Shown here: in pieces, positions 4,677-10,507 of the stretch
Layout of the letters: every line of letters begins with the position of its first letter
Numbering within the stretch: the stretch's first letter is position 1
NCBI GenBank assembly: GCA_031425655.1
Contig: JANPJS010000103.1
Coordinates: 1 to 10,623 of the forward strand
Source of the DNA: Abditibacteriaceae bacterium
GTDB lineage: Bacteria; Armatimonadota; Abditibacteriia; Abditibacteriales; Abditibacteriaceae
Length of the DNA: 10,623 nt
Reading direction: 5' to 3'
The notes under the pieces: model-generated
The model's database searches: none
Seen by the model: only the letters and a program-made list of their open reading frames with translations
Told to the model about the DNA's origin: nothing
Translations under genes and position numbers: made by a program

Positions 4677-4849
4677 AACCACAGATGAATCCGCCCAGAG
4701 GGCACCCGATAAACACGGATAAACATAGATGAATAGATGGCAGGCGAGTGAGTCCTTGCGGTGCCAAAGGCACAAGGCAAAATCAACACATCGAAATCGG
4801 TTTTTATCGGTGTTTATCGGGTGCCCTCTGGGCGGATTCATCAGTGGTT
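4677..4849. repeat. Long inverted repeat (47-bp arms, 79-nt spacer) between the converging lptD-like and intI genes
   Basis: 4677-4723 pairs 45/47 with 4803-4849. The arms are built from CACRGATRAA-like decamers around CCGCCCAGAGGGCACCC. A small hairpin GTGCC-AAA-GGCAC lies in the spacer (4761-4773). Confidence 0.9.
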
Positions 4850-4879: not shown

Positions 4880-5845
4880 TCAGTCATCGAGAGGGCTGCG
4901 CACGACTAAGCCGGGACGGTTGAGAACGTGGGTGTAAATCATGGTCGTGCTGACGTCCTTGTGGCCGAGCAATTCCTGCACGGTGCGAATATCGCTGCCG
5001 CTTTCCAGCAGGTGCGTGGCGAAAGAATGGCGCAGCGTGTGACAACTGGCTCTGGTGTCGAGTCCGGCGGTTTTCATGGCCTTTTTGACGGCGCGTTGCA
5101 GCGTATCTTCTAAAAAGTGATGGCGAAAAACGGCGCCAGTGTGCGGGTCGGAGGACGGTTTCGCAGCGGGAAAAACCCAGTGCCAAGCCCATTCAAAAGG
5201 CGCCTGCGGATATTTGCGATCCAGCGCGTCCGGCAGCAAAACCGGCACGCGCGCTTCGCCTTCGGCCTCGAATCGTTGGCGCACAGCCTTCAGATGCTCC
5301 CGCAAAGGCTCAACGACCGTGGAGGGCAGCGGCGCCACGCGATCTTTGGCGCCTTTGCCCTGACGCACCACGATTTGCTTCTGCGCAAAATTCACGTCCT
5401 TGACGCGCAAGCGCAAGCATTCGCTGAGACGCAAACCACTGCCATAAAGCAAACTCGCCATGAGGCGATAAGGGTCGTGCAGCGTATCCAAAACCAGCCT
5501 GACCTCCTGACGCGTCAGCACGACGGGCAAGCGAGACGGACGCTTGGCTCTTTCAACATTTTCCAATTGGGGAAACTCGCCCTGCAAAACATGGCGATAA
5601 AGAAACAAAAGGGCGCTAAGTGCCTGATTTTGGGTTGCCGCCGTAACATTTCCGCGCACTGCCAAATCTGTGAGAAACGCTTCGATTTCGGGCGCACCCA
5701 TGTCTTCAGGCGGCTGGCCATGAAACTTGGCAAAACGCCGAATCCACAGCAAATAAGTTTGCTCAGTGCGGTAGCTCATGTGGCGCCGCCGAAAGGCATC
5801 GCGCGCTGCGTCACATAATTGTGAAAAAGTATCAAATCTTCTCAT
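4880..5845 (-). CDS. intI: Integron integrase (tyrosine recombinase), 321 aa
   Basis: [35 protein letters not shown]. Catalytic [29 protein letters not shown] and TTMIYTHV. Integron-specific insertion [21 protein letters not shown]. Confidence 0.97.
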
Positions 5846-5879: not shown

Positions 5880-5978
5880 CCACTCTAATTTACAATACGA
5901 AGCATTAATTTTTTCTCGTCAATTTGCGGATTTACTGGTATTTTAGAGGATTATGCCGCTAAAAAGCATAAAATTGCG

Positions 5979-5997
5979 GTATAATTCAGAGTTGGGC
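5979..5997 (+). other. attI simple site, crossover G|TT at 5991/5992
   Basis: L-like GTATAAT, 5-nt spacer TCAGA, R box GTTGGGC. GTTGGGCTGCTTG (5991-6003) is the exact reverse complement of CAAGCAGCCCAAC (6614-6626) at the first attC. Confidence 0.88.
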
Positions 5998-6015
5998 TGC
6001 TTGCGCGCGGCTTCG

Positions 6016-6588
6016 ATGAAATTTATAGGTTTTTGTGATAAAAAGGATGCTATGCTTCCTAAAATCCTTCTTGGTTCAGGCATGGCCTATTGCGGGCCAG
6101 AAGATGAAGACTGGTTGAGATATTTATCGCGTATCGGCGATTACGCTCAAACACTCGACCTCAGATTTTTATCTGAAATGTGTTATGAGCATGGCAGACG
6201 CTTCAATGATTATTTTCCCAAGTTCGATCTGAACGTCCACAAAATTCAAACACGTTTTGTAACTGCGTCTGAAATACAAGAGTTTGTTCGCTACGACAAT
6301 AATGAGCCAGCTACTTTTTGGGCGCTTCAATTCGATAATTATCGCGCTAAACCCCAACCGTTCAAATATTCGATATTTGAACACATGACTAAAAATGGCA
6401 CTTGGCCTTTTCCGCCCGTTATTATTGATAATAGTAACGGGTTCGCCAGCAGTCTCAGCAAGCGTTCTCTTGGCTCACCCTGGCATTTGATCGAGGGAAC
6501 ACATCGCGTGAGTTATTTGAATCGAATGTTGGAACTGGATTTGATTTCGCCATCAAGCGAGCATGAAGTTTTCTGGCTGTGCGGCTAA
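6016..6588 (+). CDS. Cassette 1: hypothetical protein with a ParB/sulfiredoxin-like motif
   Basis: Sole long ORF in the cassette. WPFPPVII followed by HLIEGTHR resembles the ParB/Srx P-hh...LhDGxHR signature. The start may be 6016, 6052 (AAGGA upstream) or the in-frame 5953 inside the attI region. Confidence 0.6.
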   Translation: MKFIGFCDKKDAMLPKILLGSGMAYCGPEDEDWLRYLSRIGDYAQTLDLRFLSEMCYEHGRRFNDYFPKFDLNVHKIQTRFVTASEIQEFVRYDNNEPATFWALQFDNYRAKPQPFKYSIFEHMTKNGTWPFPPVIIDNSNGFASSLSKRSLGSPWHLIEGTHRVSYLNRMLELDLISPSSEHEVFWLCG

Positions 6589-6619
6589 CACATTCAGTCG
6601 CAATACCGTCCAACAAGCA

Positions 6620-6723
6620 GCCCAACAAGGCGCTGCACCCGACCGCCTACAGCCTACGCTCCTTCGCTCGTTCCTCGCTTCGTCGCTCCGGCTTCCGGCG
6701 GCGGGTGAGCTTAGTCGTTTGGC
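6620..6723 (+). repeat. attC1 (104 bp)
   Basis: GCCCAAC-AAGGC-GCT(G)CACCCG(A)CCGCC ... GGCGGCGGGTGAGC-TTAGTC-GTTTGGC. Two extrahelical bases and a 5/6-nt unpaired spacer. Confidence 0.95.
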
Positions 6724-6859
6724 GGCTGCGCGCGGCTTGGTAGAAAACAGAACTATACAAACATCAGGAGCGACTGGTAGCCTTGAGCGTATCTCGAAAA
6801 TGGCAAGCGGTTTGCTACACATTGTTAGAGAATTCCTTTCCGAAAGATAGCCATATTTT

Positions 6860-8380
6860 ATGAATGCCCCTCTACCGCCAAATGAGGCCGAGCGTCTGCA
6901 AGCACTGCGCAATTACGACATCTTGGATACACCGCCAGAAATTGCTTTCGAGCGTCTGGTCAGTTTGGCGGCGCGCCTCTTTAATGTTCCTATTGCTTTA
7001 GTCTCTCTGATAGATACGGATCGGCAATGGCTCAAATCTTGTTTTGGCATGGACACCCGCGAGACTTCTCGTGAGTTGTCGTTTTGCGCCCACACCATTC
7101 TCTCAGAGCAGGTGATGGTGGTGCCGGATGCGCGGGCTGACCTGCGCTTTGCAGATAATCCTACCGTTACCGGCGCGTCCGGCATTCGGTTTTACGCAGG
7201 AGCACCGTTGCAAACTCCTTCAGGCCACAATCTGGGTAGTTTCTGTCTGGTTGACACGGTTCCCCACCAATTCACCCAAGAGCAGCAGTCCATGCTGGAG
7301 GATATGGCGGCTATCGTAGTAGATGAATTGGAGTTGCGGCGAACGGCGCGCGAACTTCGAGAAAGCGAGGCAATGTTACGGCAGACCTCGCAGGAAAACA
7401 GCCGACTATCCACAGCCGTTGCCACTTTATCCAGCGGAGTCGTGATTACTGATCCCAACCTGCCGGACAATCCCATCATCTTCGCCAATCCGGGTTTCTA
7501 CGAGATAACCCAATATTCCGCCGAAGAGATCATAGGCTATAATTGTCGTTTTTTGCAGGGGCGGGAAACCGATCCTGGGATTGTAAAAGAAATCCGGGAC
7601 GCTATCGCGGAGCAACGCCGTTTCACAGGCACGATACTCAACTATCGCAAAGACGGCACACCGTTCGTGGACGAACTCAGCATTAGCCCGGTGTTTGATG
7701 AGGCAGGCCAACTCATGAACTTTGTCGGGCTGCAAAATGACGTAACCGAACGAGAACAGGGCAAGCAACTTCTGGAGCAACGGGTGCAGGAGCGCACCGA
7801 GGAGTTGGCACAATCGCAGATCGAAATTCTCAGCCGCCTGGCACGAGCGGCGGAGTTCCGCGACGACGACACCGGCCAGCATACGCAGCGCGTCGCGCAC
7901 ACGGCGGCTCTGCTGGCTCACTCATTGGGCTTGCAGTCAGAACAAGTTGAATTAATCCGGCAAGCGGCACCATTACATGATGTCGGCAAGATTGCCATCT
8001 CTGACATGATTCTCTTGAAGCCGGGCAAGCTGACGGACGAGGAGTTCGCCACCATGAAATCGCACGCCGCTCTTGGGGCGGCGTTGTTGTCGGATGGACA
8101 TTCTGAAGTCGTTCAACTGGCCGAGCGAATTGCCGGTGCTCATCATGAGCGTTGGGACGGCAAGGGTTACCCACAGCGATTGGCAGGGGAGCAAATACCA
8201 CTTGAAGGGCGCATCTTAGCCATTGCGGATGTATTCGACGCACTAACCCATGAGCGACCCTACAAAAAAGCTTGGTCGGTAGCAGAGGCGGTGGCTGAAA
8301 TTACACGACAGAGCGGCCAGCAATTTGATCCTCAAGTGGTAAAAGCATTCCTATCGTTGCCGCATGAGGATTTACTTTGA
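6860..8380 (+). CDS. Cassette 2: GAF-LOV(PAS)-HD-GYP phosphodiesterase, 506 aa
   Basis: GAF: EAERLQALRNYDILDT..SFCAHTI..IRFYAGAPL..LGSFCLVD. LOV: ITDPNLPDNPIIFAN..GYNCRFLQG..NYRKDG..GLQNDVT. HD-GYP: EFRDDDTGQH, LHDVGK, ILLKPGKLT, HHERWDGKGYP, ADVFDALT..RPYK. Confidence 0.93.
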   Translation: MNAPLPPNEAERLQALRNYDILDTPPEIAFERLVSLAARLFNVPIALVSLIDTDRQWLKSCFGMDTRETSRELSFCAHTILSEQVMVVPDARADLRFADNPTVTGASGIRFYAGAPLQTPSGHNLGSFCLVDTVPHQFTQEQQSMLEDMAAIVVDELELRRTARELRESEAMLRQTSQENSRLSTAVATLSSGVVITDPNLPDNPIIFANPGFYEITQYSAEEIIGYNCRFLQGRETDPGIVKEIRDAIAEQRRFTGTILNYRKDGTPFVDELSISPVFDEAGQLMNFVGLQNDVTEREQGKQLLEQRVQERTEELAQSQIEILSRLARAAEFRDDDTGQHTQRVAHTAALLAHSLGLQSEQVELIRQAAPLHDVGKIAISDMILLKPGKLTDEEFATMKSHAALGAALLSDGHSEVVQLAERIAGAHHERWDGKGYPQRLAGEQIPLEGRILAIADVFDALTHERPYKKAWSVAEAVAEITRQSGQQFDPQVVKAFLSLPHEDLL

Positions 8381-8432
8381 ATATGAAACTGAGTGCTATG
8401 AAAAAGCACGCTCCCGAAATCAACTAACAGCC

Positions 8433-8536
8433 GCCGAACAAGGCGCTGCACCCGACCGCCGACAGCTTCGTTCCCTACGCTCGTTCCTCGCTTCGGTCTC
8501 TGCGCTTCCGGCGGCGGGTGAGCTTAGTCGTTGTGC
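8433..8536 (+). repeat. attC2 (104 bp)
   Basis: GCCGAAC-AAGGC-GCTGCACCCGACCGCC ... GGCGGCGGGTGAGC-TTAGTC-GTTGTGC. Confidence 0.95.
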
Positions 8537-8575
8537 CGTCGCGCGCAGCTTGGATGCAGATATACTGAATTTATA

Positions 8576-9010
8576 ATGCCAAATCCAGAGCATTTGCCTT
8601 TGCCTCAAGCACTTTCTAATCTAATTGAGAGCGGTTTCTGGCCAACGACTGAAGCAGATTCGTTGGCACAAAATCTCAAGTCGCTCGTGCCGCGAGATAG
8701 AATCAAGGCATTTGCGCCAGAGGAGGACTCCATCTATTTTTATCAGCCTCCATTTGCGACAGTGAGTTTGTGTAAGAAACACGGCGAACAGTTTTGGGAT
8801 TGGCCTATGTCAGCCGCTCACGAGATTGATGCGGATAAGACGATACTGATTGGAGACTTTGGGCTTGGTTCTGATGCGCCAATCGCGTTGGATTACAGGC
8901 GGAATACAAATAGTCCTTCTGTTATCCGGTTGAAATGGTCACAGGAGGGCAATAATTGGGTTGAAGTTGCTGCCACCTTTGAGGACTTCATAAAACTAAT
9001 TCTTGGCTAA
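8576..9010 (+). CDS. Cassette 3: SMI1/KNR4 (SUKH superfamily) protein, about 144 aa
   Basis: LPQAL at the N-terminus, then ILIGDFGLGSDAPIALDYR..PSVI..W.EVAATFEDFI, typical of the SUKH C-terminal half. ATG 8576 is the first ATG of this ORF inside the cassette. Confidence 0.75.
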   Translation: MPNPEHLPLPQALSNLIESGFWPTTEADSLAQNLKSLVPRDRIKAFAPEEDSIYFYQPPFATVSLCKKHGEQFWDWPMSAAHEIDADKTILIGDFGLGSDAPIALDYRRNTNSPSVIRLKWSQEGNNWVEVAATFEDFIKLILG

Positions 9011-9048
9011 AGGTGAGATAAAGCCGTAGGCCCAACATCCTAACAACG

Positions 9049-9148
9049 GCACAACAAGGCGCTGCACCCGATCGCCTACAGCCCTGCGTTTCGCTCGTGC
9101 CTCGCTTCACTTCGGGCTTCCGGCAGCGGGTGAGCTTGGTCGTTAGCT
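9049..9148 (+). repeat. attC3 (100 bp)
   Basis: GCACAAC-AAGGC-GCTGCACCCGATCGCC ... GGCAGCGGGTGAGC-TTGGTC-GTTAGCT. Confidence 0.95.
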
Positions 9149-9177
9149 TGGCGCGCGTTATGCTACGGGAGCCAAAC

Positions 9178-9771
9178 ATGGAAGATTACAACCAAGAATA
9201 CGAACAGCGATTTGCATGGCGTAAAGAAAGGCAAATACACAATTTACAGGAACTCGCTGAAATAGCCCAATCGGGCGGCGCTGACGCCTTGAAGATTTTT
9301 CCTGAATTGGGTGATTCAATTGGCAGTAGTCGTCCGCATGACGCGCTGCGCTGGTCTATTGTCATGCTTTGGTGTGAGGCCGCAGAATGTTACATTTTTG
9401 GCGAGTTTCAATCCTGCGTCTTGGTTTGCGGTGCAATAGTTGAAAGATGCCTGAAACTTGAATATAGTAAAGCAAATGGGAGCCTGCCGAAGGATTCCCA
9501 TTGGACATTGGGCGCTTGCATAAATAAATGCAAAGGGGTGGTTAAGCCGGAAGTAATTCATCTTGCTCAACAAATTTTAGGGCCGCGTAACAGCCGCGCC
9601 CATGCACTTTTGGAACATTCAGACCCTCAATTGTCAATATTGGGTGGGCCAAATCAGGGCGTTGAAGTAATCAGCTCAAGACACGCACAAATTGAGCCTT
9701 ATCGTGGTGAGGCAAGAAGTGCAATTGAGAACACCTTTCAAATCCTGACCCATCTTTACGGCAAAGAATGA
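9178..9771 (+). CDS. Cassette 4: HEPN/DUF4145-like protein with RxxxxH motif, about 197 aa
   Basis: GGGAG RBS at 9167-9171. EAAECY..G.F..CV.VCGAIVE..LK, TLG.CI and RNSRAH (9586-9603) follow the HEPN helical pattern. Confidence 0.65.
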   Translation: MEDYNQEYEQRFAWRKERQIHNLQELAEIAQSGGADALKIFPELGDSIGSSRPHDALRWSIVMLWCEAAECYIFGEFQSCVLVCGAIVERCLKLEYSKANGSLPKDSHWTLGACINKCKGVVKPEVIHLAQQILGPRNSRAHALLEHSDPQLSILGGPNQGVEVISSRHAQIEPYRGEARSAIENTFQILTHLYGKE

Positions 9772-9792
9772 GAGCGAGATGCTATAACACCA

Positions 9793-9879
9793 AGCTAACA
9801 AGGCGATGCACCCGACCGCCTACAGCTTCGCTCGTTCCTCGCTCCGGCTTCCGGCGGAGGGTGAGCTTGGTCGTTCGGA
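9793..9879 (+). repeat. attC4 (87 bp)
   Basis: AGCTAAC-AAGGC-GATGCACCCGACCGCC ... GGCGGAGGGTGAGC-TTGGTC-GTTCGGA, with a shorter central region and two stem mismatches. Confidence 0.93.
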
Positions 9880-9935: not shown

Positions 9936-10220
9936 ATGAGAATCGAAGAAATAATCTGGCTGGATGTCATCGTTGACAAACTTGCCGTTAAACATGGAGT
10001 CGAAACGGAGGAGGTTGAAGAAGTATTGAGCAACAATCCTCGCTTTCGCTTCGCGGAAAGCGGAACGCGCGTTGGCGAAGATGTTTATATGGCATCAGGT
10101 CAAACAGATGGAGGGCGCTATTTATCGGTTCTTTTCATTCACAAGGCGACTAACGATGCGTTAATTCTGAGTGCCAGAGATATGTCGGGCTGGGAGCGCA
10201 AACGATATGAACGAAAATAA
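9936..10220 (+). CDS. Cassette 5: BrnT-family (RelE-like) RNase toxin
   Basis: W....DKL..KHGV..EEVEEV, G.T..GRYL.V.F and ILSARDM..WERKRY are BrnT-type motifs. The toxin precedes the antitoxin. Confidence 0.85.
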   Translation: MRIEEIIWLDVIVDKLAVKHGVETEEVEEVLSNNPRFRFAESGTRVGEDVYMASGQTDGGRYLSVLFIHKATNDALILSARDMSGWERKRYERK

Positions 10221-10461
10221 AAAGCCGGAATTTGAATCTATCGAAGAACTCACAAACTTCTTCGATAATAACGATATGGGCGAATACTTCGACGAAATGC
10301 CGGAAGTGCATTTCGATGTTGATATTCAGCGTCGCAGCTTTCTTGTGCCGATTGATAAAGAATTAATGAGAAAATTAGCGGAATTGGCTAAATCTCAGCA
10401 TACGTCAACCGGCCAGTTAGTCAATTCGTGGCTCGAAGAAAAGGTCGCACACGCAGCGTAG
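10207..10461 (+). CDS. Cassette 5: CopG/BrnA-like antitoxin, about 84 aa
   Basis: Acidic N-terminus PEFESIEE..FFD..D..EY, then a ribbon-helix-helix-like C-terminus (FLVPIDKELM..LAELAK..QLVNSWL.E). Overlaps the toxin stop by 14 nt. Confidence 0.82.
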   Translation: MNENKKPEFESIEELTNFFDNNDMGEYFDEMPEVHFDVDIQRRSFLVPIDKELMRKLAELAKSQHTSTGQLVNSWLEEKVAHAA

Positions 10462-10480
10462 TCCTGCCGTGTGCGTCCCC

Positions 10481-10498
10481 AACATGAGGCCGAACAAG
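10481..10498 (+). repeat. Remnant left end of attC5 (truncated or interrupted)
   Basis: GCCGAACAAG (10489-10498) is identical to the start of attC2. CCGAAC pairs with GTTCGG at 9873. Homology to the attC family then stops. Confidence 0.6.
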
Positions 10499-10507
10499 AG
10501 ACTATGT

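Follow-up and report, generated by a model that had tools for sequence, protein, structure and literature searches.

Closest described systems

Among proteins of solved structure, the closest relative to the HD-GYP domain considered here is PmGH, a GAF-HD-GYP phosphodiesterase from Persephonella marina (4MCW/4MDZ; E 9e-53, top fold match). We describe a GAF-LOV-HD-GYP protein of 506 residues (gene at 6860..8380, forward strand; Pfam assignments, model with a predicted local distance difference test score, pLDDT, of 91.5) that is encoded in an integron cassette at 6718..8530 of an Abditibacteriaceae bacterium. The window analyzed is the complete 10,623-bp contig JANPJS010000103.1 of assembly GCA_031425655.1, whose genome spans 5.98 Mb and is 97% complete. 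PmGH shares with the cassette protein a GAF domain, a long helix, a three-metal site, and an RxYK motif, but it has no LOV domain and no light input and is not reported as a cassette. At a probability of roughly 55%, we favor a reading in which the cassette encodes a self-contained, light-input eraser of cyclic di-GMP (c-di-GMP), transcribed from its own -24/-12 promoter and gated through a coiled coil, with the integrase setting only the presence of the gene.

LOV domains are likewise linked to c-di-GMP enzymes in the LadC LOV-GGDEF cyclases (PMC10396304) and in the LOV-GGDEF-EAL protein SL2 (PMC8846402). The link there consists of a D(I/V)(T/S) motif plus a coiled coil, and a 14-residue difference in coiled-coil length occurs there as it does in the cassette family. 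In the available parts of these reports, the outputs are GGDEF or EAL rather than HD-GYP, and there is no N-terminal Dcsbis-type GAF domain. The LOV domains of YtvA, Mrub_1259, and Brucella LOV-HK are 46-50% identical to that of the cassette, with a root-mean-square deviation of 0.6-1.5 A over the core, and GxNCRFLQ and the Gln are common to all of them. The cassette domain differs from YtvA in having Asp at the Asn104 equivalent, in its effector, and in its score of 154.8 bits against a YtvA-family cut-off of 250 bits. For the GAF domain the only solved relative is Dcsbis, a GAF-GGDEF protein of Pseudomonas aeruginosa (4ZMU), which differs in its cyclase output and in having no LOV domain.

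The domain order of the cassette protein was not found described, and it is built from known parts. No LOV-HD-GYP protein in print was found by title and abstract; a large census of LOV proteins (Glantz et al. 2016) lay outside this comparison and may list HD effectors. An HD-GYP census mentions PAS_9-HD architectures, and the term LOV is absent from its available text, with an entry possible in its Table 3 or supplements (bioRxiv 2021.11.05.467447). Moreover, the accessible text of a LOV review covering 1390 bacterial proteins contains no mention of HD-GYP (PMC4844311), the LOV phosphodiesterases named in the available part of a sensory review are EAL-type only (PMC8846402), and a cyanobacterial survey counts nine HD-GYP proteins with photoreceptor domains, the type of which does not appear in its accessible portion (PMC3747582).

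A cassette in an intact integron

The stretch at 6718..8530 (forward strand) is a bona fide cassette, the second in an intact integron. The intact integrase gene intI (4880..5845, reverse strand; 321 residues) scores 428 bits against a TIGR02249 cut-off of 265, is the sole integrase above that cut-off in the host genome, and is oriented away from an attI-like site at 5974..5997 (forward strand, crossover G5991/T5992) of putative function. This motif occurs at four sites in the host genome, every one on an attC-bearing contig, and also precedes one of the other cassette copies discussed below (L117). The array in the window contains four attC repeats with spacings of 1813, 616, and 744 bp. Cassette 2 runs from T6718 (core G6717/TTTGGC) to G8530, its 1813 bp being equal to the attC start-to-start spacing, and its 5' end, GTTTGGCGGCTG, pairs at 11 of 12 positions with the inverse core CAGCCGCCGAAC (8428-8439). 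The attC site of the cassette occupies 8428..8536 (forward strand; inverse core 8433-8439, core G8530/TTGTGC). A preliminary description of this DNA had proposed a cassette of this length with complementary ends, and both the attC spacing and a hairpin in the circle form agree with it.

In the excised-circle form, the bottom strand of this attC folds as one long hairpin (-29.8 against -23.3 kcal/mol when integrated), circle-form folds having been used for cassettes 1 and 2 only. The integrated forms of the four attC sites show no folding advantage over shuffled sequences (z -0.25 to 0.47), so that energies by themselves do not count as evidence. An attC profile search of the host genome returned 70 matches on 34 contigs, and the sites flanking cassette 2 score 81.8 and 86.0 bits with a profile built with both included. 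The cassette is the fourth largest of 29 attC-to-attC intervals below 4 kb (median 723 bp) and thus unusually large for this genome, in keeping with the earlier remark that cassettes are usually short. Among listed sequencing runs, none of RNA contained the sequence, and one DNA run contains 95% of the sequence words and may be its source. In aligned contigs, the cassette is in one piece with no differences, and the joints lie solely in attC repeats and are uninformative on excision. The host genome (G000) sets one intact integrase against four attI-like sites and the many attC matches, and its numerous integrase-less arrays may be served in trans.

Domain architecture and predicted light response

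Pfam places a GAF domain at residues 27-153, PAS_9 at 193-297, and HD_5 at 328-493. Conservation was read from an alignment of 34 full-length sequences, comprising 32 family members among the best 120 protein matches plus the copies at loci L115 and L117; partial matches and four non-LOV outgroups were left out, and L117 and protein P0002 represent the same cluster. The LOV domain (residues 193-297; 7436..7750, forward strand) carries the signature GYNCRFLQ at residues 226-233, with Cys229 encoded by TGT at 7544-7546, together with Asn261, Asp rather than Asn at residue 271, Gln292, and a DVT motif, and its model matches structure 9vf7 with a template modeling (TM) score of 0.92. Cys229 is conserved in 30, Gln292 in 33, and Asn261 in 32 of the 34 sequences, while residue 271 is Asn in 26 and Asp in seven, among them all cassette copies. 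Within the hydrogen-bond set for the flavin, Gln292 and Asn261 are present and the second Asn is replaced by Asp271. All residue positions first reported (Cys229, Gln292, HD at 373-374, and GYP at 436-438) are right, and the LOV signature is genuine and the HD-GYP domain intact. With a ratio of nonsynonymous to synonymous substitution (dN/dS) of 0.12-0.16 among cassette copies, the LOV domain included at 0.12, the gene with its intact LOV and HD-GYP signatures is under purifying selection. Judged from these signatures, the LOV domain very probably undergoes a flavin photocycle.

Some features of the family weigh against light control. Asp271 is a non-canonical flavin contact, present in 7/34 sequences, and the adduct Cys is lost in 4/34 relatives, so LOV function can be shed. 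These same features, with a chromosomal copy (G023) among those without the Cys and with related GAF-PAS-HD-GYP proteins that carry no LOV motifs at all, would suit an active c-di-GMP phosphodiesterase without light gating, in which the LOV domain has weak flavin binding or senses redox and the GAF domain or protein abundance controls the enzyme. We consider this unlikely, given that some 90% of the family retain the Cys, the Gln, and both flanking motifs, that the LOV domain is under the constraint noted above, that the linker is fixed in heptads, and that the equivalent N104D exchange is tolerated in YtvA, where, in the part of the report available, thermal dark recovery is kept and is about twice as fast (1100 s against 2100 s; PMC4161478).

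A continuous helix at residues 296-333 (7745..7858, forward strand) runs in the model from the LOV to the HD-GYP domain and is predicted to form a coiled coil. The AlphaFold model of the 506-residue protein contains unbroken helices at residues 140-188 and at 296-333, at the mean pLDDT given above and a predicted TM score of 0.56, which leaves domain orientation uncertain. Both the LOV Cys and the HD-GYP motifs are present in 50 of the best 120 protein matches, 42 of them direct fusions, and the Cys-to-HD spacing in these is 145 in 37 and 159 in five. Of 32 sequences, 27 have a GAF-to-LOV spacing of 38 and the others one of 24, 31, 45, or 66, with one unscored. All measured linker steps are multiples of seven, which argues for signaling through a coiled coil, and coupling of light by this route, of unspecified sign, appears reasonably probable from the sequences. 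LOV-GGDEF enzymes show coiled-coil transmission and a 14-residue length step, and the same source, as far as its available text goes, also reports c-di-GMP enzymes of several domains in which the neighbor of the LOV domain is not always under its control, which weighs on the other side (PMC10396304). A dimer prediction of LOV plus HD-GYP with flavin mononucleotide scored 0.33 against a mark of 0.42 and was used neither way.

The GAF domain itself (residues 27-153; 6938..7318, forward strand) is assigned by Pfam and is Dcsbis-like, matching 4ZMU (E 3e-39). We found in it none of the bilin-type motifs, which we take to be a Cys-His chromophore motif and DIP or DxCF: it reads SFCAH, has no DIP motif, and has Dcsbis as its nearest structure. 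This GAF-LOV head is also fused to PAS-HD-GYP or hybrid kinases in relatives P0031, P0039, P0043, P0054, P0065, and P0070, and is therefore a reusable module. The GAF domain is 65% identical to that of a host chromosomal hybrid kinase and the HD-GYP domain 70% identical to that of a host receiver-HD-GYP protein; by these identities, the parts of the cassette protein are host-like.

HD-GYP domain and substrate

The HD-GYP domain (residues 328-493; 7841..8338, forward strand) comprises D337, H341, H373-D374, K377, KPG (387-389), H402, HHE (428-430), GYP (436-438), D457, and RPYK (466-469). Every metal ligand of the HD-GYP type is retained (H, HD, H, HHE, and D), and H341, H373, D374, K377, H402, H428, E430, GYP, D457, R466, Y468, and K469 are invariant in 34 of 34 sequences. 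Asp337, which is nearly invariant, aligns with the third-metal acid E185 of PmGH in a register counted by hand. The available text of the HD-GYP census by Galperin and Chou accepts Glu or Asp at the third-metal position, treats RxY[K/R], which sets guanine specificity, as the c-di-GMP-type motif and RxxQ or RxxN as marking enzymes shifted to cyclic GMP-AMP (cGAMP), and describes the three-metal class as usually proceeding to GMP (bioRxiv 2021.11.05.467447). The alignment of Asp337 with Glu185 thus indicates the three-metal class, and RPYK favors c-di-GMP over cGAMP as the substrate. On these residues, an active c-di-GMP phosphodiesterase is highly probable, and conversion of c-di-GMP to GMP is likelier than a reaction with cGAMP.

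The cGAMP option had been left open in the preliminary description and is weakened by this motif. A photoreceptor with an HD-GYP domain that favors cGAMP, or that binds ligands or other proteins instead of hydrolyzing c-di-GMP, would have precedent in HD-GYP proteins that cleave cGAMP or are inactive, RpfG included according to the available part of the same census (bioRxiv 2021.11.05.467447), and the second-best solved relative of the domain is a cGAMP enzyme. We regard this as very unlikely, since RxYK, all metal ligands, and the third-metal acid show little or no variation and since cGAMP-shifted enzymes have RxxQ or RxxN.

A conserved sigma-54-type box inside the cassette

The gene is likely to be transcribed from a sigma-54 promoter of the cassette's own, to judge by a predicted -24/-12 box that the preliminary description had missed. 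This box, TGGCAAGCGGTTTGCT, lies at 6801..6816 (forward strand) in the 142-bp leader, 59 nt before the start codon, with GG at 6802-6803, GC at 6814-6815, and a predicted transcription start near 6827. Scored against a consensus of the form TGGCA..TTGC, in which exactly 10 nt separate GG from GC, it reaches 11 of 12 with an exact GG-N10-GC. A score of 11 is unique among the 3952 open reading frames of at least 200 residues in the host genome, where the background at thresholds of 8, 9, and 11 amounts to 209 (5.3%), 60 (1.5%), and 1 of these frames. No other cassette leader (of 29) scores above 9, and five host GAF paralogs are without a sigma-54 box, their best sites reaching 5-6 of 12 where there is any. 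All seven ortholog leaders contain GG-N10-G[CT] 55-75 nt upstream, with scores of 11, 9, 8, 9, 9, 9, and 9 of 12, and, the T before ATG aside, the three invariant upstream columns of the leader alignment all fall in the box, a region in which L115 is misaligned.

The exact sigma-54 spacing is also depleted six- to tenfold across the host genome, with TGGCA-N6-TTGC present 10 times against 61-108 for each of six other spacings, and CGGCA-N6-TTGC 59 times against 214-338. Such depletion would be expected if RpoN binds these sites and stray copies are purged. The host genome contains rpoN above the cut-off and two full-length receiver-type activators, and a search restricted to rpoN found it in four of four other carriers. 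The TTGTA form of the box, which three chromosomal copies of the gene carry, stands identically upstream of rpoN in three genomes of the genus. A similar sigma-54 box precedes an MshEN-type pilus ATPase, in which no c-di-GMP motif, in what we take to be its form, was found.

Several observations weigh against a functional promoter. No depletion is seen for the TTGT variant that occurs before three of the chromosomal gene copies (38 against 29-59); the interval of 45-80 nt was set after the sites had been seen, and the seven leaders are related by descent; boxes of this kind are only weakly enriched at positions ahead of genes; and 19 of 200 window shuffles hold one exact box. Moreover, 83 bp separate the cassette start from the box, of which about 30 bp are deleted in L111, leaving little room for an enhancer, and no upstream enhancer was identified. 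Together with the presence of only two activators in the genome, the absence of an identified enhancer would fit a promoterless gene whose light control is tuned by the integrase moving it relative to the promoter Pc, with the sigma-54 box a relic or repressive; the L117 copy does stand directly after an attI-like site, and the window copy is second in its array. We judge this explanation improbable: the box is kept in all seven leaders while its flanks diverge, the copy in G003, at the end of a decayed array whose integrase is frameshifted, is nevertheless intact (dN/dS 0.12), and no sigma-70-type promoter was found near attI.

A cassette with its own sigma-54 promoter implies that the integrase probably controls the presence of the gene and not its expression level, and the earlier suggestion that repositioning by IntI serves as control is accordingly the weak part of the initial interpretation. 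Expression independent of position has likewise been described for the promoter-bearing cassettes cmlA, qac, qnrVC, toxin-antitoxin, and Sucellos; the qnrVC promoter is sigma-70-like, and the available parts of these sources give no sigma-54-type promoter, and none shared with a non-cassette copy, for any of them (PMC8876359; bioRxiv 2024.07.02.601686). No paper on a sigma-54 promoter in an integron cassette was found by title or abstract.

Cassette and chromosomal copies of the gene

Named protein matches point to Abditibacteriota, and full-length orthologs were found in 5/27 genomes of Abditibacteriaceae and in 0/374 other genomes sampled from the phylum. A genome-collection scan gave one full-length locus among 80 listed, which were mostly generic HD-GYP genes, and a metagenome pattern scan gave three loci, one of them partial. 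A profile-free search of 1.84 billion representatives returned mostly multi-PAS proteins, with 0/147 new proteins carrying both motifs; ten pattern matches on viral contigs were unrelated to the family, and 12 plasmid records, all below 60% identity, contained no family member.

Seven genomic contexts are readable, comprising three cassettes, two of them decayed, and four ordinary genes. Both decayed cassette copies are 85% identical to that of the window and have other neighbors: L111 (genome G003) is last in an 11-site array with the integrase in three pieces and the flanking attC decayed, and L117 directly follows its attI-like site and is followed by half an attC. The 5' end of the L117 cassette is now a perfect palindrome, and 1.2 kb past the decayed cassette array, at L117:4740-5753, there is a CRISPR array whose repeat is 30 nt long. 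Among the ordinary genes, the copies in G012, G021, and G023 (67-70%) lie between ubiE and an M20 amidohydrolase, and the L115 copy (73%) is surrounded by signaling genes and transposases. The attC profile found no match near these four non-cassette copies, and the first three genomes have no integrase above the cut-off; G012 and G023 gave no attC match at all, and G021 two weak ones. The G021 copy (L114:8730-11269) is frameshifted near codon 98 and is followed by a separate GAF-only paralog. The first reading, that the architecture in a cassette may be undescribed, survives as far as the protein is concerned, no LOV-HD-GYP description having been found in print. The packaging is not unique, as the gene lies outside integrons in four of the seven contexts and a histidine-kinase cassette is also present in the genome.

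The sequences indicate that the same gene and promoter exist in both the cassette and the chromosomal state, and thus have crossed between them at least once with the promoter attached. Quick trees unite the cassette copies in a single clade (support 98-99), to which protein P0005 is sister, and join the non-cassette copies weakly (85), without resolving the root. One change of state, from chromosome to cassette or the reverse, is enough. The position between ubiE and the M20 gene was considered as the ancestral chromosomal home and set aside, as it occurs in only three genomes, is not family-wide, and is no proof. That these proteins are the first natural LOV-gated HD-GYP family, with the cassette derived from a resident gene of the chromosome that was captured as DNA along with its sigma-54 promoter, is a tentative and rather doubtful proposal. 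Cassette genesis by reverse transcription of mRNA is one proposed model. Since a transcript begins downstream of its -24/-12 box, this cassette would not be copyable from mRNA. The literature, in the parts available, treats cassette genesis as unresolved and includes a group IIC intron model (PMC7923331, PMC3001079).

Other features of the window and host genome

Cassette 1 (5992..6717, forward strand) contains a 178-residue open reading frame without a known family and ends in an attC at 6620-6723. Cassette 3 (8531-9142) has a weak SMI1/KNR4 match, cassette 4 (9143-9873) encodes a protein that, as in cassette 1, belongs to no Pfam or NCBIfam family, and the last cassette (9936-10461) encodes a BrnT-like toxin and a CopG-type antitoxin, with only a trace of attC near 10470-10500. 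Intergenic palindromic elements lie at 1424-1637 and 4677-4849, the latter containing CCCAGAGGGYRCCC, which has 229 copies in the genome, some of them within attC sites. Three microRNA matches in Rfam, all in palindromes outside cassette 2, were far under the gathering score and were rejected. Elsewhere in the host genome, L161:177-1373 encodes a 398-residue histidine kinase flanked by two attC sites, a second signaling cassette, and L162:4111-6838 holds an asparagine-synthase-like and transglutaminase-like pair between attC sites in a 3.2-kb interval, which resembles part of a lasso-peptide cluster.

Proposed mechanism and significance

We hypothesize that sigma-54 polymerase and one of the two receiver-type activators would transcribe the gene at any array position, and that the protein would form a parallel dimer. 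Blue light would then produce a Cys229-flavin adduct and a flip of Gln292, and this change may pass through the DVT motif and the coiled coil to the three-metal HD-GYP site, which would hydrolyze c-di-GMP, probably as far as GMP. A second input or a dimer clamp may be provided by the GAF domain. By analogy with other LOV enzymes, we would guess that light activates the enzyme. In this scheme, the integrase would decide whether a cell has the gene.

Host motif searches identified 18 GGDEF, 13 HD-GYP, and 18 prepilin open reading frames, one PilZ match, and one other credible LOV protein, a kinase. With 13 HD-GYP and 18 GGDEF frames already in the host, the effect of the cassette may be small or local, which counts against a major role. 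The motility output suggested at first does not extend to flagella, as no flagellin was found in the host genome; with prepilin-motif frames present, output through adhesion or pili is likelier than swimming, and adhesion, matrix, or type IV pili are the likely targets rather than flagella.

The shared promoter and the pairing of cassette and non-cassette copies are the stronger new result. The occurrence of a gene with its promoter in both states is a rare natural pair for studying the making or domestication of cassettes, and it tests the argument for a functional isolation of chromosomal integrons from the physiology of their host, as made in the available part of that source (PMC11551772). 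Were capture from the chromosome true, it would make the genesis of a cassette traceable in this case, and the cassette would be plugged straight into two host regulatory networks. A LOV-controlled HD-GYP protein would place in one 506-residue chain a blue-light enzyme that clears c-di-GMP, probably to GMP, with potential use in optogenetic biofilm control and in learning how coiled coils gate HD-GYP sites. More generally, the cassette would provide a first hint of light and sigma-54 signaling in Abditibacteriaceae.

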